This document shows, one piece after another, positions 14,116 through 59,373 of a stretch of 60,758 nt of DNA. Origin of the DNA: Minisyncoccota bacterium (GTDB lineage Bacteria; Patescibacteriota; Minisyncoccia; Phycocordibacterales; XYD1-FULL-46-19). The notes beneath the pieces are model-generated. The model was not told where the DNA came from. It was given only the letters and a program-made list of their open reading frames with translations, and did no database searches. The number at the start of each line of letters is the position of its first letter. Position 1 is the stretch's first letter. A program made the translations under genes and the position numbers. The DNA lies in contig JBAZMZ010000004.1 of NCBI GenBank assembly GCA_041649495.1, forward strand, positions 1-60,758. Reading direction: 5' to 3'.

Positions 14116-14538
14116 TTACAAATTTAACGACTTAACGATATTTTTAAGATATTTAGGCACATCGGTAAGACAAGATTCGATTGCGCCAAAAACTTTCTTA
14201 GCGTCAATTTCATCATATTCGTGAGCCAGCCGGTTTCTTAATCCCGCCGAATTAGCCATCGTCTCGGCAAATTTGGTTGGCAGATATTTCTTTTTTCCTA
14301 ATGTGATAAAAGAATTGTAAAAATCGGTCGGAATTTCATTTTCTTTTTCTGACAAAATGTGGTAATTAATATCAATCATTCGACCAATTATTCTTTCCAG
14401 ATATCTTTCCGCTAACGTTTCATATTCCGCTTTGCTCAAATAAGTTTTAAGCGAAAGTTTGCTTAGCGCTTTTAAACTTTTTAAGTCGCCGTTGATGGAG
14501 GTTATTTTCCGACTGATGAGTTCTTTATCAAGAGGCAT
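14116..14538 (-). CDS. hepT: HEPN-domain toxin (HepT/DUF86)
   Basis: RNRLAHEYD matches the Rx4-6H HEPN motif. It overlaps the upstream nucleotidyltransferase gene. Confidence 0.8.
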   Translation of the reverse strand: MPLDKELISRKITSINGDLKSLKALSKLSLKTYLSKAEYETLAERYLERIIGRMIDINYHILSEKENEIPTDFYNSFITLGKKKYLPTKFAETMANSAGLRNRLAHEYDEIDAKKVFGAIESCLTDVPKYLKNIVKSLNL

Positions 14539-14932
14539 AGGTGTTGATTATTTTTTTATTCAAATTATTTTCCATCGCAAAATAGGGCGCGTAGTCATTG
14601 TAAGCGTTAAAAGCGTAAAGCCGGAATTTCAGAAATTCTTCTCGACTGCCATAGAGTAAAATGGGATTTTTGCTAACCTGAAAAGACAGGAGCGGGTTGG
14701 CTCGATTTAAAACCGACAAATCGACATTTTTATTAAAAACCGAAGATAAGTCGTTGGTCAAACTAATTTGCTCGTCAAAAGAGACCCCGCTTGAACCCAA
14801 AACAGCGATGTCCAAATCACTATCTTTTCTTTGTCGTCCATTAGCAAAAGAACCAAAAATAATCAGCAGTTTTAATTGGAATTTTTGGGCAATTTGGGCA
14901 ACTTTCAGTTTGTGATCCTTGGTGATATCCAT
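14528..14932 (-). CDS. mntA: Minimal nucleotidyltransferase antitoxin (MntA)
   Basis: IFGSFANGRQRKDSDLDIAVL is the GSx10DxD motif. The ATG at 14932 (MDITKDHK) is preferred over the track start at 14977. Confidence 0.8.
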   Translation of the reverse strand: MDITKDHKLKVAQIAQKFQLKLLIIFGSFANGRQRKDSDLDIAVLGSSGVSFDEQISLTNDLSSVFNKNVDLSVLNRANPLLSFQVSKNPILLYGSREEFLKFRLYAFNAYNDYAPYFAMENNLNKKIINTYAS

Positions 14933-14976
14933 ACTGCCATTATACAAAGAACGGCAAGTTAAAACAATGATACACA

Positions 14977-15046
14977 CTCGAAGTCCGACTTCGGGCTTAC
15001 TTGAAGTCGGACTTCAAACCGCAAGGTTCAACCTTGCGATAGCAAG
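14977..15046. repeat. Repeat module A, copy 1 (two hairpins)
   Basis: GAAGTCCGACTTC gggcttactt GAAGTCGGACTTC, then CCGCAAGGTT c AACCTTGCG. It is near-identical to 46345-46414. Confidence 0.85.
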
Positions 15047-15060
15047 GGTTTTTTACGGTC

Positions 15061-15093
15061 AAAGATGTTAAACACCCGGTGTTTAACATCTTT
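15061..15093. repeat. Perfect 33-nt palindromic hairpin
   Basis: AAAGATGTTAAACAC c c g GTGTTTAACATCTTT. Confidence 0.7.
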
Positions 15094-15158: not shown

Positions 15159-15422
15159 ATGGCTGGCGGAACACACGATCCAATATCGATTGGGGACAAT
15201 ACAGTTGATTTCCTGCTCCTCAAAATCCTAGCGAAGGATGGCTGGGCTCCAGAGTACTATGATTGGGCGGAGAAAGTGATTATCCTCAGGGCCACCAATA
15301 TGACCAAGTGGCAGAAAGATTTACTCTTTTGCGCAATCAAAGGTTGTGTCGACTTCTTTCACAGATGTGATAATGGTCGGTTCACCCAACTATCCTCCCG
15401 CCTTACGGCAAACCTGCCATGA
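15159..15422 (+). CDS. Hypothetical 87-aa protein (cassette gene inside repeat A/B copy 1)
   Basis: A strong SD (GAAAGGAGGGA) lies 5 nt before the ATG, and an intrinsic terminator overlaps its 3' end and follows the stop. It lies on the opposite strand to all its neighbours. Confidence 0.6.
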   Translation: MAGGTHDPISIGDNTVDFLLLKILAKDGWAPEYYDWAEKVIILRATNMTKWQKDLLFCAIKGCVDFFHRCDNGRFTQLSSRLTANLP

Positions 15423-15525: not shown

Positions 15526-15672
15526 AGTTAAGCGAGCCGGACCCGCTTAAAAAGCCTCTCGCAGAACGATTTGGTATGGTCTCCGAGGGTAACGAGGAGC
15601 AAATCGTTCGAGAGGAGCAAAAAATTTTTGCTGGAAAATTTTAAGGCAAGGTTTTTAAGCGGGATCGGCGAG
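15526..15672. repeat. Repeat module B, copy 1 (structured, about 145 nt)
   Basis: Aligns with 46415-46565. It has nested helices, two of which covary between the copies. Confidence 0.8.
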
Positions 15673-15675
15673 CGT

Positions 15676-16950
15676 CTAATACTCCCGCATTGAGATTTGC
15701 GCGTCAATTTGTTTAACGAATTCAATCGCCACCGAGACCACAATCAAGAGACTCGTGCCCCCGATAGCCAGCGAAGCGATGCCAGTCAGATTCTGAACGA
15801 TGATTGGCAAAATCGCCACAATACCTAAAAACAGCGCTCCGATCAGAGTCAAACGCGTTAAGATATTCGCGATATAAACCGAAGTTGAATTGCCGGGTCG
15901 CACACCAGGGATAAAAGCCCCATTTTTTTGTAAATTTTCGGAGATTGCTTGAGGATCGAAAGTAATGGCCGAATAGAAATAGGTAAAGACCACCACCAAG
16001 AAGAAATAGAGAAGGCCGTAAACAAATTGATTAGCGAGAAAATCAGACAAACCAGTCACCACCGCTTGCGTTGCCCCCCCAACGTAATTGGCAAGAAAAC
16101 TTAAAACCATCCGGGGGAAAAGCAGAATTGAAATAGCAAAGATAATAGGCATCACGCCAGCATTATTGACCCGAATCGGCAAATAAGTCGAGGTGCCACC
16201 ATACATCTTAGAGCCTCTTACTCGTTTAGCGTAAGTGACCGGAATTGGTCGCTCCGCTTCAGTGACGAAGACAATCGCGGCCAAGACCACTAGTCCCACC
16301 ACGAAAAAGGCTAGGTACATTGGGATTTGCGAGATGTCATAAGTAACAGCCAATTGCGAAAGGGTTGATGGCAAACGTGAGACAATACCAGCAAAGATCA
16401 GGAGTGAAACACCGTTACCAATACCAAACTCGGTAATTAATTCCCCAATCCACATTAAGAGAATCGAGCCAGCAGTAATAACCACAATATTCGTCAATTG
16501 ATCAAAAAAACTCATTGGTAATAACACGCCCTGCTTCTCCAACAGAATCAACAAACTTAGGCCTTGGACAATACAGAGCGGAACCGTTAACAAACGAGAA
16601 TATTGCGCCACCTTGCGTCGACCCGCTACCCCCTCTTCGTGATAAAGCTGTTTCAGGGCCGGGAAAATGAGAGTGAGAAGTTGAAAAATAATCGAAGAAG
16701 TAATAAACGGTCCAACTCCCAACATCATAATCGAAAGATTCGACAAACCACCACCCGAAAAGATATTGAGTAAACCGAAGAATTGATTATTACTTAAAAA
16801 CTTTTCGAGCTGGAGAATATTGACACCAGGAATCGGGATGGTCGCACCCAGACGAAAAAGCGCCAAGGCTCCCAAAACAAAGAGAATCCGATTGCGTAAG
16901 CCGCGATCTTCGAAGACTAATCTTAATTTATTATTGAACGCTTCTAACAT
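15676..16950 (-). CDS. secY: Preprotein translocase subunit SecY
   Basis: 424 aa, 10 TM segments, canonical SecY motifs. It follows rplO. Confidence 0.95.
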   Translation of the reverse strand: MLEAFNNKLRLVFEDRGLRNRILFVLGALALFRLGATIPIPGVNILQLEKFLSNNQFFGLLNIFSGGGLSNLSIMMLGVGPFITSSIIFQLLTLIFPALKQLYHEEGVAGRRKVAQYSRLLTVPLCIVQGLSLLILLEKQGVLLPMSFFDQLTNIVVITAGSILLMWIGELITEFGIGNGVSLLIFAGIVSRLPSTLSQLAVTYDISQIPMYLAFFVVGLVVLAAIVFVTEAERPIPVTYAKRVRGSKMYGGTSTYLPIRVNNAGVMPIIFAISILLFPRMVLSFLANYVGGATQAVVTGLSDFLANQFVYGLLYFFLVVVFTYFYSAITFDPQAISENLQKNGAFIPGVRPGNSTSVYIANILTRLTLIGALFLGIVAILPIIVQNLTGIASLAIGGTSLLIVVSVAIEFVKQIDAQISMREY

Positions 16951-17036
16951 AATTTTTAAATTACTCTAATTATTCTAATTTCTAATATTGGGAATTGGGA
17001 GTTTATTTAGGTTAATTAAGTTAATTAGAAATTAGG
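16951..17036. repeat. AT-rich spacer element, family 3 (copy 1 of 4)
   Basis: ...CTAATTATTCTAATTTCTAAT...TTATTTAGGTTAATTAAGTTAATTAGAAATTAGGTTAATT fills the whole rplO-secY spacer. Confidence 0.8.
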
Positions 17037-17471
17037 TTAATTTTTTATCATCCCACCGGCTTTTTCGATTTTTACCTTAGCCGAATCAGACACCAAACAA
17101 TTCTCAAACTTTAATTTCTTAGTAAAATCGCCCGTGGCCAAAATCTTTACCGCCGGGATTTGACCTCGTTCGCGCTTAACCAATTTCTTGGCCAATAAAA
17201 CAGTTGGCGTAATAAGCTCACCATCTTTAAAGATTTTCTCTAAAGTCGCCAGATTAACGACGGCTGGCTTAACGCTGACCGTACTAAAACGATAACCGCG
17301 CAATTTAGGCAATTTCTTAATGATATCCCGCATTTCGGGACGACGTTTATTGCCAGCGCGAGCCTTCTGACCCTTAGTGCCCCGACCAGAAGTGGTTCCG
17401 CGTTTACCGCCACGACCAACAATTTTTTTGGCGTGATGGCTAGAATGTTTTTTTAAATTATGTAATTGCAT
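17037..17471 (-). CDS. rplO: Ribosomal protein uL15
   Basis: MQLHNLKK...GRGGKRGTTSGRGTKGQKARAG. Confidence 0.95.
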   Translation of the reverse strand: MQLHNLKKHSSHHAKKIVGRGGKRGTTSGRGTKGQKARAGNKRRPEMRDIIKKLPKLRGYRFSTVSVKPAVVNLATLEKIFKDGELITPTVLLAKKLVKRERGQIPAVKILATGDFTKKLKFENCLVSDSAKVKIEKAGGMIKN

Positions 17472-20484: not shown

Positions 20485-20519
20485 ACCTAAAAAGGAGGCT
20501 TGAAGCCTCCTTTTTAGGT
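20485..20519 (-). terminator. Hairpin terminator after the PKD-domain gene
   Basis: ACCTAAAAAGGAGGC ttgaa GCCTCCTTTTTAGGT. Confidence 0.6.
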
Positions 20520-20545: not shown

Positions 20546-22060
20546 TTAACCTCCTACTACCACCGTCCGAGTAGCTTCAACATAACGATTAAAATTATCC
20601 GAGACCGTAAATTTAACCGTATAGGTACCAGCTTGAGAATAAGAATGTCGAAAAGTTTGCGACTGGCCAGTCGAACCTTGGGCACCAATTATCGCTGTTT
20701 CGCTAGCTTGCGTAGGAGACTCCCCCCAATTGATAGAGTAAGTTAAATAAGTTAAGTTAACTCCGGGCGAGGCTGTCGTGTTTATACCCCAAGAACCCCT
20801 TTCGCCCACCTTGAGAGAACCCGGGGCAAAGATGCGCTCAATTATAATACCGGGGGAAGCAACAATATTTATCGTCTTAATACAAATTCCACTTCCCCCC
20901 TCACCGCCAACCAAAAGGGTTACTGACGGGTTTCCAACAACATTCGCCGTGACCCGCTGTAATCCATCCGCGCTAAGTTTGTCCCCAGGCAACAACAAAG
21001 AATCTCTACCAGATGTATCCTGTTGCCAATATGCGTATGTAGCATTTTTGCTTGACCAGAAAAAATTAATGGGATCGCCTAAAGTGTATGATTCTTTATC
21101 AGAAGTAAGAACACAGGATGGTTGACCTAGATTATTTCCAATCGTCATATTAACCACATTGCTTTGCCCAATGGCACTGCTAACAAAAACCGAAAACGAG
21201 CCGGTGGGCCAATCTTTAGACTCTTGAATCACAATTTTAGTATTGGTTTTGGTAACCCAAGGCGACATTTGGGGGAGAACGAATTGTAATGGGCCAATTG
21301 TCCCAGAATTCACCTGACTTAACCTCTCCCCAGTAATAACAACTGTCCGATTACTGCTGTCAAAGGTGGCACCACTAATCCACGGGCCTTTCTCGAAACC
21401 ATTATCCACCACGACAGTCAGAGTAGCTTGAGCGGGAGCATAAGCACCAACACATTTATCAATTTCACCACTACATTTTGATCTATCATAGACAGTGAAT
21501 CTAATTGTATAAGTCCCCGGACGAGAATAAGTATGGGTGAAAGTACTAGTCTGGCTCACTTCGGTTTTTAGTCCGGCCACCACCGGAGTGGCAATGATAT
21601 CACCCCAATCAACTGAATATGTTAAATCGATACCGCTTGGCGCCGTGGCACTAATACTCCAAGTCCCAGTCTGATTAACAGCAAGCAAAGTCGGACCAGA
21701 AACAGAGTTGATGGAAATATTGTTGGTTGACCCACCACAAGGCAGACCTGTCGTTGAACTATAACCAGAAGTTGAAGTGCAACCGGCTGGTAGGATAATT
21801 TCTACTGGGGTTATGGCCGGACCCTGTAAAGCCACAATTTGCGCTTGCAAAGCTGCAATTTGGGCCAACAATTGTTGCATTAAACCCGACTGACAAAACG
21901 CCGGCTGGATAGGTTCTGAACCAACATTACCGTTCAGTTGCCAAACATGGTGCGACAAATCATAAATCTGACATTGTAATTCTTGAACTGTAGCTCCTTG
22001 CCCCACAAACGGCACAACCATTAAAGCGACGAGAAGAAACGAAACAATATATTTTTTCAT
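20546..22060 (-). CDS. Secreted protein with two PKD-like domains
   Basis: Has a signal peptide. It contains TFTHTYSRPGTYTIRFTVYD and QTFRHSYSQAGTYTVKFTVSD. Confidence 0.7.
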   Translation of the reverse strand: MKKYIVSFLLVALMVVPFVGQGATVQELQCQIYDLSHHVWQLNGNVGSEPIQPAFCQSGLMQQLLAQIAALQAQIVALQGPAITPVEIILPAGCTSTSGYSSTTGLPCGGSTNNISINSVSGPTLLAVNQTGTWSISATAPSGIDLTYSVDWGDIIATPVVAGLKTEVSQTSTFTHTYSRPGTYTIRFTVYDRSKCSGEIDKCVGAYAPAQATLTVVVDNGFEKGPWISGATFDSSNRTVVITGERLSQVNSGTIGPLQFVLPQMSPWVTKTNTKIVIQESKDWPTGSFSVFVSSAIGQSNVVNMTIGNNLGQPSCVLTSDKESYTLGDPINFFWSSKNATYAYWQQDTSGRDSLLLPGDKLSADGLQRVTANVVGNPSVTLLVGGEGGSGICIKTINIVASPGIIIERIFAPGSLKVGERGSWGINTTASPGVNLTYLTYSINWGESPTQASETAIIGAQGSTGQSQTFRHSYSQAGTYTVKFTVSDNFNRYVEATRTVVVGG

Positions 22061-22088
22061 TAAATTAAATAATTATTAATAAAACTAA

Positions 22089-22124
22089 GAGGTTAAACCT
22101 CGGGCTCACTAGAGGTTTAACCTC
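22089..22124. repeat. Conserved-loop hairpin family member
   Basis: GAGGTTAAACCTC gggctcacta GAGGTTTAACCTC. The 13-bp stem is perfect. Confidence 0.8.
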
Positions 22125-22213
22125 CAGAAAAGCTCACAATAAGAATACCACTTAAAGCCCCCCGCAAACAGGTTGAGGGGGATAAATAAAAAGGCCCTAA
22201 TCCTAATTCACAG

Positions 22214-22450
22214 CTAATTTATGTGCCAAAGAGATTTGGGTAAACCAGATTGAGCAATAATACTTTTTAGTGTTTTGGGAGCAAAAGATAATTGATTACC
22301 GTGACGAGGAACACAAACTTGCCTTAGTTTGCCGGCAATTCGGCCACAATAGTAGTAATGGCTTCCTCGGATATGATTTACTTGAAAATTATGCTCTTTA
22401 AGCACCGCTTCGACGTCTCGAAATGTCCAATTGTTCAAACCCTTCGGCAT
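22214..22450 (-). CDS. hicA: HicA-family toxin (copy 1)
   Basis: 78 aa with ...HIRGSHYYY...VPRHGNQ...TLKSIIAQSGL. Confidence 0.8.
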   Translation of the reverse strand: MPKGLNNWTFRDVEAVLKEHNFQVNHIRGSHYYYCGRIAGKLRQVCVPRHGNQLSFAPKTLKSIIAQSGLPKSLWHIN

Positions 22451-22452
22451 TT

Positions 22453-22764
22453 TTAAACGGCTATTTTGGTAACGCCGTAATGATAAACCTCATAGGGTGA
22501 GCGTACGGGTCTGGCCGAGTGAAGATTTTGCCACATTTTCTCATATTCAGCTTCGGTTTTTTGATTTAATGAAGAAAAGTCATGAAGCCCCTTTATTTTT
22601 TTAGCAGATTCAACATAACCCTGGATCGCTTCCTGTAAATTTAACATGGCGATAACTGGGTTATCGGCCGATTCGGTGATATTAAACTCTAGGGCCGTCC
22701 CGTACCAAGTTTTACCGTCCCGAAAGACAATACACCGAACTGCACCTTTTTGAGGAGTATTCAT
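22453..22764 (-). CDS. hicB: HicB-like antitoxin (copy 1)
   Basis: 103 aa, lying 2 nt upstream of hicA. CIVFRDGKTWYGTALEFNITESADNPVIAMLNLQEAIQGYVE is a UPF0150-like pattern. Confidence 0.6.
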   Translation of the reverse strand: MNTPQKGAVRCIVFRDGKTWYGTALEFNITESADNPVIAMLNLQEAIQGYVESAKKIKGLHDFSSLNQKTEAEYEKMWQNLHSARPVRSPYEVYHYGVTKIAV

Positions 22765-22809: not shown

Positions 22810-23346
22810 TTAACGTTTTTTAAACGGAAAACCAATCGCTTTGAAGAAGGCGAGGGCAGATTTTTTGTCTTTGGCAGTGGTAACAATCGTGATCGCTAGA
22901 CCGAACACATCCCTCAATTCTTCGTCCGCGGTTTGGGGGAAGACAGTGTGCTCTTTAATCGGTAAAGTCAGATTACCCACCTGATCCACAATTTTAGGGT
23001 CATAACCCTTGAAGTCGCGAATACGCGGAATCGCCACGTTGAGCAAGAGATCTAAGAAGCTATACATTCGCGGACCGCGTAAAGTAACGGCATAACCCAC
23101 GACATCCCCCTCACGGACCTTGAAGCTGGCAATCGATTTCTTCGCTCCGCGCGGAGCTGGCTTTTGACCGGTAATTTTGGCTAAACGGCTTTCTACCACC
23201 TCATTACGCTTCTTATCTTTGGCCTTACCGGTACCCGAATTAACCACCACCTTAACCAAACGAGGCAAGGCAATCGCATTCTTCACCCCCAGCTCTTTTT
23301 TAAGCTCGGGCGCAACTTTTTCAATTTTTTCTTTTAGTTTAATCAT
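22810..23346 (-). CDS. rplE: Ribosomal protein uL5
   Basis: 178 aa with uL5-type N- and C-terminal motifs (LPRLVKVVVNSGTGKA..., GLAITIVTTA). Confidence 0.95.
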   Translation of the reverse strand: MIKLKEKIEKVAPELKKELGVKNAIALPRLVKVVVNSGTGKAKDKKRNEVVESRLAKITGQKPAPRGAKKSIASFKVREGDVVGYAVTLRGPRMYSFLDLLLNVAIPRIRDFKGYDPKIVDQVGNLTLPIKEHTVFPQTADEELRDVFGLAITIVTTAKDKKSALAFFKAIGFPFKKR

Positions 23347-23448
23347 GGCGTTAAAAATTATTCTAATTATTTTAATTATTCTAATTTCTAATTGGGAATT
23401 TCGAATTTATTTAGGTTAATTAAGTTAATTAGAAATTAGGTTAATTTT
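23347..23448. repeat. AT-rich spacer element, family 3 (copy 2)
   Basis: Fills the rplX-rplE spacer. It shares the CTAATTTCTAATT ... AATTAGAAATTAG arms. Confidence 0.8.
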
Positions 23449-23754
23449 CTAGATCTCCTTCCCACATTTTTTACAAACTCGCACTTTCTTTTTCGCCGTA
23501 ATTTTCGCGCCAATTCTCACCCCCTGTTTACAACTCGGGCAATAAAGCAAAACATTAGAAAGATGAATTGGATGGGGAACTTCAACCATTTGACCCTTCT
23601 CACCCTGTTTGCGTGGTCGTTGATGTTTCTTTTTGACATTCACCCCCTCCACCAAGACTTTGTCAGATTCACGATAAAGACGCAAAACTTTGCTTTGTTT
23701 CCCTCGGTCCTTCCCGGCAATCACTATTACATTGTCATTCTTTTTGATATTCAT
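23449..23754 (-). CDS. rplX: Ribosomal protein uL24 with C-terminal CxxC...CxxC
   Basis: MNIKKNDNVIVIAGKDRGKQSKV is the KOW motif. The C-terminus reads CPSCKQG...CKKCG. Confidence 0.95.
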   Translation of the reverse strand: MNIKKNDNVIVIAGKDRGKQSKVLRLYRESDKVLVEGVNVKKKHQRPRKQGEKGQMVEVPHPIHLSNVLLYCPSCKQGVRIGAKITAKKKVRVCKKCGKEI

Positions 23755-23857
23755 ATTTCTTAAATTATTCTAATTGCTCTAATTATTCTAATTTCTAACA
23801 TTGGAAATTTGGGGTTTGTTTAGGTTAATTAAGTTAATTAGAAATTAGGTTAATTTT
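23755..23857. repeat. AT-rich spacer element, family 3 (copy 3)
   Basis: Fills the rplN-rplX spacer. Confidence 0.8.
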
Positions 23858-24229
23858 CTATACTATCTCTGGCGCCAACGACGCAATTTTCTGATAACCC
23901 CGCTCGGCAATTTCGCGCGGGATGGGCCCAAAGATCCGACCGCCCCGTGGTTCCAATTTGCCCTTTTCTAAAATCACCACGGCATTCTCGTCAAAACAAA
24001 GATACGAGCCGTCAGCCCGACGAAACGGACTTCGTTGACGAACGACAATCGCCCGCAAAACCTCCTTTTTCTTCGTTGCCTTGCGTGGTTCAGCCACCTG
24101 AACCGACAAAACCACCAAATCACCGATCCGCGCATAACGCTTCTTCGAACCGCCCAACACCTTAAAGACCCGCCCGATCTTGGCCCCGGTGTTATCTGCG
24201 ATTTTTACAATGGTTTGTGGTTGAATCAT
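23858..24229 (-). CDS. rplN: Ribosomal protein uL14
   Basis: MIQPQTIVKIADNTGAK... Confidence 0.95.
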   Translation of the reverse strand: MIQPQTIVKIADNTGAKIGRVFKVLGGSKKRYARIGDLVVLSVQVAEPRKATKKKEVLRAIVVRQRSPFRRADGSYLCFDENAVVILEKGKLEPRGGRIFGPIPREIAERGYQKIASLAPEIV

Positions 24230-25929: not shown

Positions 25930-26274
25930 TTAGGGGTTAGTATTTGGGGATTTCGCCTCTAATTCGACCTCAACATTACTCAACCGGTGACGAATCGGAA
26001 AAGCTCGGCCGTGGGAGACTGGCTGGAAACGACGAATCACATTACCTTTATCAACCGTAATATTTTTGATATACAAATCAGCCTCATCTTTTTTGAAATT
26101 GGTTTTAGCATTGGCCACCGCTGAGAGCACCAGTTTCTTGATCGGCGCTGACGCTTTCTTAATTACAAAATCAAGATCGGCCAGAGCTTGGGTCACCGGC
26201 TTACCCTTAATCGCCTCCGTGACTAAACGAGTGCGACGAGGTGATTGATGAAGATTTTTTAGTGAAGCTTTCAT
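25930..26274 (-). CDS. rplV: Ribosomal protein uL22
   Basis: LHQSPRRTRLVTEAIKGKPVTQAL... Confidence 0.95.
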   Translation of the reverse strand: MKASLKNLHQSPRRTRLVTEAIKGKPVTQALADLDFVIKKASAPIKKLVLSAVANAKTNFKKDEADLYIKNITVDKGNVIRRFQPVSHGRAFPIRHRLSNVEVELEAKSPNTNP

Positions 26275-26406
26275 ATCTTGAAAATTGTTCTAATTGATCT
26301 AATTATTCTAATTTCTAAATAATTTCTAATGACATAATTTCTAAATTTGGGATTTGGGATTTATTTAGGTTAATTAGGTTAATTAAAAATTAGGTTAATT
26401 CTACTA
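26275..26406. repeat. AT-rich spacer element, family 3 (copy 4, longest)
   Basis: Fills the rpsS-rplV spacer. Confidence 0.8.
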
Positions 26407-30268: not shown

Positions 30269-30300
30269 CCCCCTGATTATACATCTCTAAAGCTCAAACG

Positions 30301-30335
30301 CAAACTCCCGCCGAGCTTAGCTCGGCGGGAGTTTG
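30301..30335 (-). terminator. Strong 16-bp hairpin directly after rpsJ
   Basis: CAAACTCCCGCCGAGC tta GCTCGGCGGGAGTTTG. Confidence 0.6.
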
Positions 30336-30362
30336 CTTCTACTTTTTTGTTGTTTGTTAACT

Positions 30363-45088: not shown

Positions 45089-45130
45089 ATTTGGGTATTA
45101 TAAACCAAAAACAAAAGAAACAGAAAACTT

Positions 45131-45164
45131 GTTAACATTTCTCCCAATTGGAAATTATGTTAAC
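45131..45164. promoter_or_regulatory. 34-nt palindrome upstream of the PaaX-like gene (operator candidate)
   Basis: GTTAACATTTCTCCCAATTGGAAATTATGTTAAC. It is related to 45800-45833. Confidence 0.5.
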
Positions 45165-45184
45165 ATGGAGAGGTAAATATAAAT

Positions 45185-45703
45185 ATGAGCCTTGGCGACG
45201 AAATCATCTTTTTTCTCTCTAACCATCCTGGAAATTATCGAGATCTTAGATCGCGGATGTTGGGGGATCTCTTCCTTGAAGATAAACTCCAGGCCAAGAT
45301 AGCTGAGAGAAAGAAAATGGCAAACCAAGAAAGAGTCTTGCGCGTCACCTTGTCTAGATTGAAGAAAAACGGCTTAATTATAAATAATGAAGAGAGTTTG
45401 TGGAAACTAACAATTGAAGGGGTTAAAAAATTAAGAGATTATCACTGGCGAAAACATAGCCACCCAGCCCAAATTCCCAAGTCTAAAAGAAAAATGATTA
45501 TCGCCTTTGATATCCCTAAAAACAAGGAAAGGGCTCGACACTGGTTGAGAACAGAGTTAGTTGGTTTAGGTTTTAAATTAATGCAAAAAAGTGTCTGGTT
45601 GGGGCCGGCACCGCTACCGAAAGAATTTATTGATCAAACTAAGACCTTGGATATCTTGCCCCACTTAAAATTTTTTGAAGTCAAAGAAACTGACATTATT
45701 TAA
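45185..45703 (+). CDS. PaaX-like regulator: winged-HTH N-terminus plus Cas2-like ferredoxin-fold C-terminus
   Basis: RVTLSRLKKNGLI (wHTH) and MIIAFDIPKNKERARHWLRTELVGLGFKLMQKSVWLGP (PaaX/Cas2-like). A GGAGAGG SD is present. Confidence 0.6.
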   Translation: MSLGDEIIFFLSNHPGNYRDLRSRMLGDLFLEDKLQAKIAERKKMANQERVLRVTLSRLKKNGLIINNEESLWKLTIEGVKKLRDYHWRKHSHPAQIPKSKRKMIIAFDIPKNKERARHWLRTELVGLGFKLMQKSVWLGPAPLPKEFIDQTKTLDILPHLKFFEVKETDII

Positions 45704-45799
45704 TTGAGCAAACAGAGTAACCTGTTCTTACTTTTTCCCCACCTCATACCTTTTCCCCATCTTTTCTCTCTTACTTTTTCTTAAATCCTAACTCCGGTC

Positions 45800-45833
45800 G
45801 TTAACAAAATTTCCAATTGGAAATTTTGTTAAC
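45800..45833. repeat. Perfect 34-nt palindrome downstream of the PaaX-like gene
   Basis: GTTAACAAAATTTCCAATTGGAAATTTTGTTAAC. It is flanked by a pyrimidine tract on the left and a purine tract on the right. Confidence 0.7.
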
Positions 45834-45922
45834 AACAAGAAAGGAAGAAAAAGGGGGGATAGGTAATGTCAGTTTTAATTAATATTTTTTGAAAATCAAA
45901 AGACCGCCCTAACCCGGATAGG

Positions 45923-46258: not shown

Positions 46259-46344
46259 TTCTGCCTCCTTTCGAGGTTAAAGTTAGTGTTCAGTTTCCAA
46301 AATTAAGTTAGCAAAAAGGTGAGAAAAAACAAGGAAAACTTCGG

Positions 46345-46414
46345 CTCGAAGTCCAACTTCGGGCTCACTTGAAGTTGGACTTCAAACCGCAAGGTTCAAC
46401 CTTGCGGTAGCAAC
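46345..46414. repeat. Repeat module A, copy 2
   Basis: GAAGTCCAACTTC gggctcactt GAAGTTGGACTTC, then CCGCAAGGTT c AACCTTGCGG. Confidence 0.85.
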
Positions 46415-46565
46415 CAAGCGAGACTTGTTTCGTTTAAAAAGCCTCTCGCAGACCGAGTTGGCACGGTCTCCGAGCACAGCGAGGAGCAACTCGGTCGAGA
46501 GGAGCAAAAAATTTTCGCTGGAAAATTTTAAGGCGAGGTTTTTAAAACGAAATCAAGTCGAGCGA
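46415..46565. repeat. Repeat module B, copy 2
   Basis: Aligns with 15526-15672. Here it directly abuts module A. Confidence 0.8.
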
Positions 46566-47990: not shown

Positions 47991-48014
47991 TTTTTACTTA
48001 TTTGCTTATTTACA

Positions 48015-48067
48015 CCCCCCTCACCCGCCAGACCTTGGGCTCACTTAAGGTCTGGCGGGGACGGGGG
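48015..48067. repeat. Conserved-loop hairpin family member (extended stem)
   Basis: CCGCCAGACCTT gggctcactt AAGGTCTGGCGG, with outer CCCCC/GGGGG pairing. It starts right after the pilin stop codon. Confidence 0.85.
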
Positions 48068-48715
48068 TCATAAATTATCTTTTAAATTTCTCATCATCAC
48101 TTGGCTCGACAAATAAATCGGCACGGGCGCTTGAGCCGAATTGGCATCAATCAAGAATTCAACTTTAACCAAGCGAATATTTTTGATTTCAATCGGCTCA
48201 ACCAGGGGAGAACTCGACGCCGTCCCATCATAATCACGGTCATAATAACTAAAGATCAGGTTGTTAGGGTTAACCATATCATTAACCAGTGTCGAAACAT
48301 CTTCCGCATTAAGATCGTAAACATAGGGTTGGCCCGAGGGGGCAATTTCCCCCCGCTTAAAAGTTTGGCCATCGAGGAAATAACGCAAGCGTTCACGTTT
48401 GCCATCATTATTAATATCGCTATAAAAAATAAAATTACTTTTATCCGCCAATTCGATCGGGTAAGTGCCAGTATTAGACGGTTCAGCGGTGCGAATTTCC
48501 GCCATCAAACGACGCATGGCAATTTTGGCCTCGCTCTCGGCCACCAATTCGCGCGACCAAACTAAATTTTGGTAAAAAATATCCCGACCAAAATTAGCAA
48601 TCGCCAAGCCAACGAGAACCACCAGGCCGACAACCACCAGCATTTCTACTAGCGTGAAACCCGCCTGATTCGTCAGATTCGCCTGAACTCGTAGATTCGT
48701 ATCGTGTATTTTCAT
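48068..48715 (-). CDS. Prepilin-type protein (PulJ/PilW-like), 19-aa leader
   Basis: ...TNQAG FTLVEMLVVVGLVVL is the class III signal/N-methylation motif. Confidence 0.85.
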   Translation of the reverse strand: MKIHDTNLRVQANLTNQAGFTLVEMLVVVGLVVLVGLAIANFGRDIFYQNLVWSRELVAESEAKIAMRRLMAEIRTAEPSNTGTYPIELADKSNFIFYSDINNDGKRERLRYFLDGQTFKRGEIAPSGQPYVYDLNAEDVSTLVNDMVNPNNLIFSYYDRDYDGTASSSPLVEPIEIKNIRLVKVEFLIDANSAQAPVPIYLSSQVMMRNLKDNL

Positions 48716-50511: not shown

Positions 50512-51749
50512 TCACTTGATCGCATTAGAGAGCGAATACATTGGACCAATCATCGACACCGCAAATAAGCCGACGGCCAAGCCAATAATAATCATCAAGA
50601 CGGGTTCAATCACCGTCGACAAATTTTTGGTCACCTGATCAACTTCATCTTCAAAAAAAACTGCGCCTTTGAGCAAGAGTTCCGGCAATTTACCTGTCTC
50701 TTCGCCAACTGACGACATCTCACTAGCAAAAATCGGGAAAAGATTTTGATGAGCCGAGAAGATAACTGACAAAGAAATACCTTTTTGGACCTTATCGAGA
50801 GCTTCAATCATTACTTGTTGATAATAATAATTTTGCACCACCTTCTTGGTGATGGCCATCGTCTTGGTCAGACTAACGCCCGCCGAGACAGAGAGAAAGT
50901 GGTTCGCATAATCACGGCCGAATTGACCTGACGCGTTAATTTATTAACAAAAGGAATATGCAAAAGCAACCAAGGCATCATCTTCTTACCCCGCCCCGTT
51001 TTCGGCCACCAAAGCAAAAAGATAATAAGTAAAACAAGGCCAGCCAAAACGACGAAGATATTATTAACTAAGAAATCAGACAAACCAATCACCAAACGCG
51101 TCGACAATGGCAAGGGCACATTAAGTTCGCGAAAAGTGGCCGACAAGGTCGAGATCAGAAAAATCATCATCAAAATACCGATCGCGACGATGGCCACGAC
51201 AATCACCGAGGGATAAATCAGAGCGCCAATAATTTTGCGACGCAAGGCATAACTTTTTTCTAATTGCTCACCGATTAATTTGAGGGCTTCGGGCAATTTA
51301 CCCGTCTCTTCGGCCGCGGCGACCATCGCCGTAAAAACCTCGGGGAAAATTTTTGGCCACTTAGCCAAAGCGCCACTCAAACTCTCACCCTTGGCAATGA
51401 GAGCCTCTACTTCGGTTAAAACTTTTTTGAAATATTTATGGCTCGTTTGCCGCGCCATCACCGACAAGGCTCGCGACAAGGGTAAACCAGCGCTAATCAT
51501 CGCGCTCAAATTATTAGCAAAAATAATTTTGTCTTTCATCTTTACCCTGTGGAGTATAATTCGCCAAGAGCGAATTACCGCAAAGCGGTACTCCACAGGG
51601 TGAACCCTATTATTTTTTACTTCTTCCACTACTAAAGCAATCAAACCTTCGGCACGCAATTCGCGGGCCAAACTAAAACGGTCAACGGATTCTCGAGTCC
51701 CCGAAATTTCTTCGCCATTAGCCCTTTTCGCCCTAAAATTGAAAATCAT
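50512..51749 (-). pseudogene. pilC: PilC/GspF-family platform protein split by a frame shift (ORFs 50868-51749 and 50512-50859)
   Basis: The first GspF domain (FANNLSAMISAGLPLSRAL...AAEETGKLPEAL) is in one frame. The second (FLSVSAGVSLTKTMAI...VGEETGKLPELL) is in the adjacent frame, which is open from about 50935. Confidence 0.75.
51545..51600. repeat. 56-nt nested palindrome lying in-frame inside pilC
   Basis: CCCTGTGGAGTA ... TACTCCACAGGG, with inner AATTCGC/GCGAATT and ACCGC/GCGGT stems. Confidence 0.8.
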
Positions 51750-51767
51750 TTTTTAATTTTTATTTTG

Positions 51768-51803
51768 CCCGCCAGACCTTGGGCTCACTTAAGGTCTGGC
51801 GGG
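51768..51803. repeat. Conserved-loop hairpin family member
   Basis: CCCGCCAGACCTT gggctcactt AAGGTCTGGCGGG, lying between pilB and pilC. Confidence 0.85.
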
Positions 51804-51814
51804 AAAGTGAGGGG

Positions 51815-58266: not shown

Positions 58267-59373
58267 ATGGTCAAATTACCCAAAATTGATATCCAGCCGA
58301 CCGGCGAAGGCGAAATTGAGCTTTCGGCCGAGTTAGAAGTCGAGATTTTTAATGGTTATCGCGACCAAGCTCTCAAGGCGCTCGGCGCTGATGCCAAAAT
58401 CGATGGCTTTCGTCCTGGCCATATCCCCGAAAAGGTCCTGATTGAACAATTGGGTGAAGAAAAGGTGTTGTGGGAAATGGCGCAACAAGCCATCGCCGAT
58501 TATTATCCGGCTATTTTACAAGAACATAAGATTCCGGCCATTGGTCAACCGCAAGTGACAATTACCAAAATTGCCAAGGATAATCCGCTCGGTTTCAAAA
58601 TCAAAACCGCCGTGATGCCCGAGATCAAAATTGGCGATTATAAAAAGATCGCCCAAAAAGCCAATGAACTTGGAGGCGAAACCTCGAAATCCCCAGAGGT
58701 TTCACCTCCAAGTCTGACTGCCAGCGACGAGGAAATCAACAAGGTTATTGAAGAATTACGTCGCAGTCGCGCCACGGTTGACCATTCTGAGCACGAACAT
58801 AAAGAAGATGAGAAGTGCGATCACTCTACACCAGAACTACCAAAAGAAGCTGAATTGCCCGAGCTCACCGACGAATTTGCCCAAAGCTTGGGTCAATTTA
58901 AAACTGTTGACGAACTCAAAGCCAAGATCAAAGAAAATCTCGAATTAGAAAAAAAGAATAAAGCCAAAGACAAAAAACGAGTCGAAATTGTTGAAGAAAT
59001 AATCAAAGCTTCCGAGATAAAAATTGCCAATCTTTTGGTTGACAGCGAAAAAGAAAAAATGCTGGCCGAGATGGAATCACAGATTGGTTATATGGGCCTC
59101 AAGTTTGACGATTATCTCGCCCATCTGAAAAAAACTCGCGACGAATTAAAGAGTGGCTGGGACAAAGAGGCTCGCCAACGCGTTGCTTTTGGTCTCGTCC
59201 TCGCCGAGATTGCCAAATTAGAAAAGATTGAAGCCCCCGAAGAAGAGCTCAAACGCGAAATTGACTACCTCAAGAACCAGTACAAAGATGTCCCCGAAGA
59301 TCGCCTCCGCGCCTACGCCTCTAGCCTCCTCATCAACGAAAAAGTGTTCGAGTTTTTGGAAAATCAAAAATAA
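58267..59373 (+). CDS. tig: Trigger factor lacking the FKBP/PPIase domain
   Basis: The N-domain has DGFRPGHIP. A C-terminal arm domain is present. The middle PPIase segment is replaced by a short acidic/His linker. Confidence 0.8.
   Translation: MVKLPKIDIQPTGEGEIELSAELEVEIFNGYRDQALKALGADAKIDGFRPGHIPEKVLIEQLGEEKVLWEMAQQAIADYYPAILQEHKIPAIGQPQVTITKIAKDNPLGFKIKTAVMPEIKIGDYKKIAQKANELGGETSKSPEVSPPSLTASDEEINKVIEELRRSRATVDHSEHEHKEDEKCDHSTPELPKEAELPELTDEFAQSLGQFKTVDELKAKIKENLELEKKNKAKDKKRVEIVEEIIKASEIKIANLLVDSEKEKMLAEMESQIGYMGLKFDDYLAHLKKTRDELKSGWDKEARQRVAFGLVLAEIAKLEKIEAPEEELKREIDYLKNQYKDVPEDRLRAYASSLLINEKVFEFLENQK

Follow-up and report, generated by a model that had tools for sequence, protein, structure and literature searches.

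The hairpins studied here in a 60,758-nt stretch of Minisyncoccota DNA (contig JBAZMZ010000004.1, positions 1 to 60,758; the whole stretch is called the window below) belong to a lineage-specific dispersed repeat that is spread across Vogelbacteria-like Paceibacterota genomes and whose copies, on the time scale on which related species diverge, have appeared, disappeared, decayed, or been inverted or overwritten. The most likely explanation, to which we give a probability of roughly 0.6, is that these hairpins are a non-autonomous palindromic repeat acting at the DNA level as selfish or mobile DNA, whose conserved tip is recognized by the machinery that copies it. The focal copy lies just past the stop codon of a pilin-like gene (arms CCCGCCAGACCTT at 48024-48036 and AAGGTCTGGCGGG at 48047-48059, loop GGGCTCACTT at 48037-48046). 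An earlier reading made from the letters alone, referred to here as the sequence-only reading, had grouped it with four others as hairpins with an invariant 10-nt loop on unrelated, perfectly paired stems, and had proposed that a protein or RNA recognizes this loop on sense transcripts.

The loop word, GGGCTYACTW, has five matches in the window (14993, 22102, 46361, 48037, and 51781), all on the + strand, whereas the mean chance expectation is 0.37 and none of 100 dinucleotide shuffles reached five. Every match is the exact 10-nt gap between perfectly complementary 13-nt arms (5/5), and the coordinates, perfect stems, and gene context that had been given for the five hairpins were confirmed. 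The word depends on the hairpin, as only one of about 70 exact 10-mers lies outside any hairpin. As RNA the window hairpins have folding energies of -21 to -46 kcal/mol (z -4.2 to -8.9). The loop is identical in three of the five copies, the exceptions being GGGCTTACTT at 14993 and GGGCTCACTA at 22102, and the five pairs adjacent to it are ACYTY/RARGT in all five, which makes a conserved core of 20 nt. A covariance model built from the family recovers these five copies (53-61 bits) and a sixth at 58668-58713 (23.2 bits).

Two of the five, both on the + strand like the rest, have a GAAGTCC-type stem. They are the member at 14975-15020 (54.6 bits; arms GAAGTCCGACTTC/GAAGTCGGACTTC at 14980-15015, loop at 14993-15002) and the member at 46343-46388 (54.8 bits; arms GAAGTCCAACTTC/GAAGTTGGACTTC at 46348-46383, loop GGGCTCACTT at 46361-46370), and the single compensated change that had been noticed between their stems is real. 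The focal member (48008-48075, 60.2 bits) and the member at 51763-51808 (61.1 bits; the same arms at 51768-51780 and 51791-51803, loop at 51781-51790) have a CCCGCC-type stem. The remaining one is at 22084-22129 (53.4 bits; arms GAGGTTAAACCTC/GAGGTTTAACCTC at 22089-22124, loop at 22102-22111). The gene with its stop at 48068 (48068-48715) carries a pilin N-methylation motif, and the focal helix continues with imperfect pairing out to 48008-48075, so that the TGA stop of this gene is inside it. The copy at 51763-51808 lies between the stop of the PilB-type ATPase gene (51815) and the start of the PilC gene (51749). As had been observed, both hairpins are close to the preceding stop codon, their stems ending 8-11 nt from it. 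The member at 14975-15020 is between secY (15676-16950, - strand) and an MNT/HEPN toxin-antitoxin pair, and that at 22084-22129 is upstream of a PKD-domain gene (20546-22060, - strand) and on the - strand then reads UUAGUUUUAUUA. In all five canonical copies the coding strand carries AAGTGAGCCC. The statement that all copies lie between co-directional genes needs one correction: a + strand open reading frame (ORF) at 15159-15422 separates the site at 14993 from secY.

To define the host range, the 20-nt core was scanned over one genome per bacterial and archaeal species. There were 64 strict matches, concentrated in nine Paceibacterota/Vogelbacteria metagenome-assembled genomes (21 of them in one such genome of 20 contigs), and other species genomes gave 11 singleton matches that were stemless and at chance level. 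The window is also present as a metagenome contig in ENA (ERZ27247363), and the trigger factor and PilB that it encodes are nearest to proteins labelled Candidatus Vogelbacteria or Paceibacterota. When metagenome contigs were mapped on the window the depth rose about 10-fold at three hairpin bins. The matches of other contigs are confined to 48023-48060 and 51769-51803, and these contigs diverge at 48022/23, 48061, 51768, and 51804. Since they diverge exactly at the hairpin edges, the repeat unit is the hairpin alone with unrelated flanks, and the family is not one MITE (miniature inverted-repeat transposable element) with identical flanks. The unit is 36-46 bp and there is about one copy per 10-30 kb. 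A scan of viral contigs for the core gave no matches and therefore no phage link. The copies are not an artefact of sequencing or assembly, since independent assemblies from ENA, JGI, NCBI, and Logan repeatedly have them in frame at orthologous positions.

Among 75 hairpin-validated copies from the genome loci and the window, 28 (37%) are well inside ORFs of at least 100 aa. The host genes confirmed by Pfam code for ComEC, dihydroorotate dehydrogenase, PolA, a class-V aminotransferase, Dus, PfkB, enolase, cysteinyl-tRNA synthetase, and trigger factor, with three copies in one ComEC gene and three in dihydroorotate dehydrogenase. The intragenic copies always keep the reading frame and are read through as 12-15 extra residues, and the encoded peptides are stereotyped: (V/G)R(N/S)(A/P)TSSEPEV(V/G)(F/L)R(T/K), EVQLQVSPKLDF, ..TSGSLE.., and ..RAHL... 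The sixth window copy is such a case. It is a diverged member on the - strand at 58668-58713 within the trigger-factor gene (58267-59373, + strand), which carries GAGGCGAAACCTC-GAAATCCCCA-GAGGTTTCACCTC (arm, loop, and arm as read on the + strand) in frame and encodes GETSKSPEVSP, and the ortholog at locus L024 has the canonical loop at the same codons and encodes GETSSEPEVSP. Differences between orthologs preserve the pairing and not the peptide: the Dus copies differ by a single pair only, a compensatory G-C/A-T change that alters two residues (N/S and F/L). The covariation of the stems likewise indicates that pairing counts for more than the peptide. Copies also cluster and nest, as at L012 (5290-5400), L034 (7370-7770), and in the gene 2029-3291 of L061 at about aa 295-330; there are two adjacent elements of opposite orientation in ComEC, three within 400 nt in dihydroorotate dehydrogenase, and decayed copies beside intact ones. 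This clustering suggests either preferential insertion in or beside resident copies or a small number of tolerated sites.

Comparison of orthologous sites gave a record of turnover. In aminotransferase orthologs (77-78% amino acid identity) and in ComEC (65%) the same sites are occupied in opposite orientation, are loop-decayed, or are empty, and the opposite orientation is an inversion of the whole element, which changes the peptide from SSEP to SGSL. When 120 trigger-factor homologues were aligned without regard to the element, element-derived peptides were found only among the closest 40 or so, in a patchy manner, with SSEP in six, SGSL in four, several decayed forms, and many close relatives empty. 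The DNA of four of these homologues confirmed in-place inversion of the whole element and placed the site in a linker of variable sequence. Between orthologs of Dus and of PolA, identity is 93-96% in the element and 69-71% in its flanks, and in ComEC and PfkB orthologs differing stem classes occupy the same site with an identical tip of 20-22 nt. At the pilus genes, the hairpin between pilB and pilC is common only to the closest relative, L168 (PilB 88.6% identical), and is absent from five relatives with PilB identities of 75-83%, in which the spacers are 1-28 nt. That between the pilin-like gene and pilX is present in L152 and absent both from L064, in which stop and start codons overlap, and from a related strain in the run X3 metagenome. 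The region after secY differs in L027. An ATGA...ATGA at the junction of the pilin-like gene and pilX was considered as a target-site duplication and was not borne out by comparison of the pilB-pilC junction with its five empty relatives.

The genome loci were retrieved by searching with the loop and their loops are therefore invariant by construction. An unbiased test was made by scanning metagenomes for the stem CCGCCAGACC-N8-20-GGTCTGGCGG with any middle. About 28 of the 32 matches with a 14-nt middle have a GGGCTCACTT-like loop, ten of them exactly, and the variants include GGGCTCCCTT, GGGCTCACCA, GGGAACACTT, and GGGCACCCTT. Loop positions G1-3, C6, and C8 are nearly fixed and positions 4, 5, 7, 9, and 10 are variable. 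The loop is strongly conserved, yet not invariant, and in the window only three of five copies are exact. The stems, which had been called unrelated, have their closing five pairs in common, and further out they belong to a small number of classes that return in several genomes: CCCGCCAGACCTY, in which stem position 6 is often a C-C mismatch; GAAGTCCAACTTC, which is found in an arm-swapped form too; and an imperfect 18-bp stem, TGTGCGAAAAACGACTTC/GAAGTCGCATTTCTCACA. Thus the element has a conserved tip of 20 nt, ACYTY-GGGCTCACTT-RARGT, and a variable outer stem. Across 44 diverse copies there are double-sided changes at 16 of 18 stem pairs, with 85% of cells paired versus 63% in shuffles, and even at the four outermost positions, which are copy-specific, 55-68% of copies are paired. 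Mismatches concentrate at positions 6, 8, and 9. G-T and A-C mismatches are equal in number (8 versus 8), and therefore neither strand is marked out as the folded one.

Some of these results would also be expected if no dedicated enzyme were involved and the copies were shaped by replication and recombination at palindromes, that is, by template switching and ectopic gene conversion, with the loop kept by descent and homogenization. Perfect stems that reach into copy-specific flanks, whole-element inversions in place, and different stem classes with an identical tip at one site all fit this explanation, as does the finding of neither a linked transposase nor a target-site duplication. It leaves unexplained how copies arrive at new sites such as the pilB-pilC junction, and why the most conserved part is the unpaired loop, which is beyond the correction that stem templating could give. 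We consider it rather improbable.

The single orientation noted in the sequence-only reading holds for the five canonical window copies; across the family both orientations occur, 37 versus 20 with respect to the genes and 44 versus 26 with respect to local GC skew. Orientation is thus a tendency, and neither gene direction nor GC skew gives a strict rule. Whichever their orientation, intergenic copies sit in short spacers and mostly begin some 8-13 nt past a stop codon. These observations bear on the proposal that the hairpins are a signal at the RNA level, in which the loop AAGUGAGCCC on sense transcripts would be bound by a protein or a complementary RNA and would affect mRNA stability, processing, or the coupling of adjacent genes. 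The uniform orientation in the window, the bias in the same direction across the family (37 versus 20 overall and 23 versus 5 inside ORFs), the short distance from stop codons, the conserved tip, and the maintained pairing are what such a signal would show. However, about one third of the copies are in the opposite orientation, in which case the RNA loop differs, and several terminator-like copies read GGGCUCACUU; one third are inside the ORFs of housekeeping genes that are unrelated to each other; close relatives have empty sites; and the stem mismatches show no G-U versus A-C asymmetry (8 versus 8). Nor is there an Rfam match: a covariance search of the window returned only tmRNA at the gathering threshold and, at E<=10, only chance-level matches around the sites. 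An RNA-level signal is in our judgement unlikely. What stands of the earlier proposal is that the hairpins are a true family with a constrained tip and that none of those in the window is called as a terminator; the part in which the loop is read on sense transcripts does not agree with the two orientations, the intragenic copies, and the turnover.

A second alternative is that the hairpins are terminators or 3'-end stabilizers and that one successful terminator has been copied around, in the manner of the pneumococcal SPRITE repeats. In other genomes, eight or more copies with the CCCGCC stem combine a GC-rich stem with an A-tract and a T4-6 tract, and they resemble bidirectional intrinsic terminators. 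Those flanked by co-directional genes are 25-28 nt past the stop codon (for example, in L018, L021, L023, L037, L044, and L065). A further point in favour is that the window has no excess of ordinary terminators (14 versus 14.8 in shuffles). However, a terminator scan of the window called none of the hairpin copies, and only the copy at 22102 has something of a U-rich tail. In-frame intragenic copies cannot terminate transcription of their genes, and the junctions of pilB with pilC and of the pilin-like gene with pilX are internal to operons, the genes being 1-28 nt apart or overlapping in relatives. It is quite unlikely, in our view, that termination explains the family as a whole.

A third possibility is that the 10-mer or the 20-nt core is a double-stranded DNA word for a host protein, such as a DNA uptake sequence of the competence and type IV pilus system or a site for chromosome organization. 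The word occurs in both orientations and in genes as well as spacers, it has variants resembling dialects in related metagenomic lineages, and the lineage encodes ComEC and type IV pili. The uptake sequences of Neisseria and Haemophilus occur about once per kb. Like the DNA uptake sequence of Neisseria and the uptake signal sequence of the Pasteurellaceae, the hairpin word is short and conserved, has lineage variants, occurs in both orientations, and is tolerated in variable parts of proteins, and those sequences too are often found at terminator hairpins. However, in those systems the word forms the stem and not the loop and is 10-30 times more dense, whereas the hairpin word is almost never free of its stems. 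Moreover, the copies are insertions of a whole hairpin and not matches that arose by point mutation, and the stem pairing covaries, which a double-stranded word does not need. This explanation appears very unlikely.

In the explanation that we prefer, selfish or mobile DNA, the element would act at the DNA level and the conserved tip would be the determinant for an enzyme that copies or refreshes it, most plausibly one that works on hairpins of single-stranded DNA. Templating of one arm against the other through template switching, or selection for pairing, may keep the stems perfect though variable and may extend them into the flanks. A secondary role as transcript-end hairpins may have been taken on by copies just past stop codons, above all by those with A/T tracts. 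A more specific version, which we offer only tentatively, is a minimal mobile DNA of a kind not described before. It would be a hairpin of about 36 nt whose identity resides in the tip (the 10-nt loop and five pairs), handled by a loop-specific enzyme on single-stranded DNA, with the stem rebuilt from the insertion site, and it would routinely colonize the genes of a lineage with reduced genomes in frame and add linker peptides to essential proteins. Rebuilding the stem from the insertion site would account for copy-specific stem bases that are mutual inverted complements.

Several observations weigh against the explanation as selfish or mobile DNA. Comparison of filled with empty sites gave no consistent target-site duplication, and none of the empty sites recovered was clean. 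Several genes have copies repeatedly at the same codons, a pattern that overwriting in place, or strong selection on sites that tolerate a copy, would explain as well as transposition does. Intragenic copies are skewed in orientation, with AAGTGAGCCC on the sense strand in 23 and GGGCTCACTT in five, and this leaves room for an effect at the level of RNA or of the replication strand. The conservation of the tip across species could reflect a host function and not just recognition for mobility. A search for RNA runs that contain the window found none; only DNA metagenomes, from landfill and groundwater, contain it. Finally, no partner enzyme was assigned. With E. coli RayT as the query, tblastn brought to light Y1 (IS200-like) transposase genes in the hairpin-bearing loci L078, L028, L026, L014, and L080. 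These genes match Pfam Y1_Tnp, and their best NCBIfam match is the REP-associated tyrosine transposase (RAYT; REP, repetitive extragenic palindrome), under its cut-off. There is one gene per locus, in neighbourhoods that recur between genomes, either next to an aminotransferase gene or between fusA and tuf. The gene family is widespread in Parcubacteria and is broader than the hairpin family, its flanks carry another family of perfect palindromes (..AACAYC-N-GRTGTT..), and the covariance model found no hairpin member beside the Y1 genes. Hairpin-processing HUH enzymes thus exist in the lineage, which favours the explanation, and none is assignable to the hairpin family.

The RAYT-like Y1 protein is accordingly not claimed as the partner enzyme, given that its gene is flanked by other palindromes and that the gene family is much broader. 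Between paired hairpin copies only unrelated genes, and no transposase, were found. No candidate for a parent insertion sequence with matching ends turned up in 1.2 Mb of loci, in which no dedicated test for one was made. The AACAYC-N-GRTGTT palindromes, which have a 1-nt centre, form a family of their own. One is in the window at 15061-15093 (AAAGATGTTAAACACC-C-GGTGTTTAACATCTTT), 45 nt from a hairpin, and there is no Y1 gene in the window. Others are in L028 (2277-2315, 2510-2532, 3056-3086, 4531-4553, and 4567-4589), L026 (5765-5793 and 6315-6343), and L200 (4554-4604). Together with the single-copy Y1 genes of several Paceibacterota genomes, these palindromes look like a REP/RAYT-type pair in bacteria of the Candidate Phyla Radiation (CPR).

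The hairpin family was compared with known systems. The hairpins at the origins of rolling-circle replicons, recognized by HUH Rep proteins on single-stranded DNA, have a conserved loop on variable stems. They occur once per replicon beside the rep gene, whereas a chromosome has tens of hairpin-family copies and viral contigs have none. A difference from MITEs is that the unit is a single hairpin and that target-site duplications were not found consistently, and the layout of MITEs and REPs is reversed, with a conserved tip and a variable base. SPRITEs and intrinsic terminators are similar in being GC-rich hairpins just past stop codons, and a subset of the family has A/T tracts on both sides, but the window copies have no U-tract and many copies are in ORFs or at operon-internal junctions.

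The Rickettsia palindromic elements (RPEs) are palindromic repeats without a transposase of their own that occur in spacers and, with unusual frequency, in frame in housekeeping genes (PMC10969869). The likeness extends to in-frame insertion in unrelated ORFs as well as spacers (28/75 copies in ORFs here), the addition of a conserved peptide, and decay among species. RPEs are about 100-150 bp and belong to an alphaproteobacterial genus, whereas the hairpin family is 36-46 bp and belongs to Paceibacterota, so that the two are set apart by size and host, with no sequence relationship shown. The hairpin family also differs in its conserved tip and variable stem base and in frequent in-place inversion and stem-class replacement. 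REPs are extragenic and have a GTAG or CGTC tag (PMC3733652). The family resembles REPs and REPINs in being short (20-40 nt), imperfectly palindromic, present in many copies per genome, lineage-specific, and near the 3' ends of genes, with recurring stem mismatches, and RAYT-like Y1 genes are present in the same genomes. However, 37% of the copies are intragenic, the tag is absent (GTAG in 0, CTAC in 2, CGTC in 1, and GACG in 2 of 93 distinct 46-mers), and in the loci scanned the Y1 genes are flanked by AACAYC|GRTGTT palindromes and not by the hairpin family. Palindromes in mitochondrial genes of Nematomorpha (PMC6649704) and in Volvox (PMC2670323) are likewise perfect inverted repeats in coding genes, with both arms translated, and are thought to be selfish and kept up at the level of DNA, but they are longer, organellar, and without a loop common to different stems. 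Judged by these comparisons, the family is closest to RPEs in behaviour and resembles REPs in size and genomic position, and it would be a member of neither. Full-text searches of the literature gave no description of the loop sequence in a relevant context or of palindromic repeats in the CPR.

The surroundings of the window copies have features of their own. The copies at 14980 and 46348 are within a longer 69-nt repeat (14977-15045 and 46345-46413). In this unit a second hairpin, ACCGCAAGGT-TCA-ACCTTGCGGT, is 2-3 nt from the family member, at 46386-46408 on the + strand, and it recurs at 15019-15045. Its tip type (RAGGT-YGA-ACCTY) is also found in hairpins that flank the Y1 transposase gene of L078. 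The copy at 46343-46388 is moreover part of a highly structured repeat of about 230 nt (z -9.6, + strand) that is present twice, at 46340-46560 and at 14977-15045 plus 15544-15658. The second copy is split by about 480 nt containing the + strand ORF at 15159-15422. A 115-nt part shows compensatory changes between the copies (GAACGATTTG/CAAATCGTTC versus GACCGAGTTG/CAACTCGGTC). Relatives of this repeat are in L049 and L052, and it has no Rfam match. Toxin-antitoxin-like pairs are directly beside two hairpins, at 14116-14932 and at about 22215-22764 (- strand). The former consists of an MNT nucleotidyltransferase and a HEPN HepT-like protein, and the latter of a small ORF that reads from its translation as HicA-like and a 103-aa ORF without a Pfam match. 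Both regions look like variable inserts, and L027 does not have the one after secY.

Other features of the window were also recorded. The pilC gene (50512-51749, - strand) is split by a frameshift into ORFs of 293 and 115 aa with overlapping frames near 50860-50930; contigs from four samples all show this split, and relatives have a single gene of 406-412 aa. A gene at 45185-45703 (+ strand) coding for a PaaX/Cas2-like protein with an Mrr_N domain is bracketed by related palindromes of 17-20 bp at 45130-45165 and 45797-45836 (GTTAACA..TTCCAA|TTGGAA..TGTTAAC), which look like operator sites. Other perfect palindromes, 15-18 bp long and centred on a single nucleotide, are at 246-280, 20485-20519, 30300-30336, and 2571-2601. 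One of them abuts the tmRNA gene (281-669), and that at 2571-2601 has GGGCTCAC in the stem and not in a loop. Spacers between ribosomal-protein genes contain AT-rich repeats (ATTCTAATT units and TTAGGTTAATTAAGTTAATTAGAAATTAGGTTAATTTT) at 16937-17048, 23343-23452, 23732-23861, and 26270-26406.

To our knowledge, the CPR bacteria, with their tiny genomes, have been regarded as having almost no repeats. In the present case a dispersed repeat has been written in frame into the genes for ComEC, DNA polymerase I, enolase, a tRNA synthetase, and trigger factor. If the family is indeed selfish, it would be a second, independent case of selfish DNA inside protein-coding genes, as known from Rickettsia. 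Short-read assemblies break at the loops of its copies, and in protein alignments the copies give rise to insertions that look spurious. The family can serve as a marker for the genome dynamics of strains and species in uncultured lineages, and the 20-nt hairpin tip is a concrete substrate with which an enzyme that recognizes it may be found.

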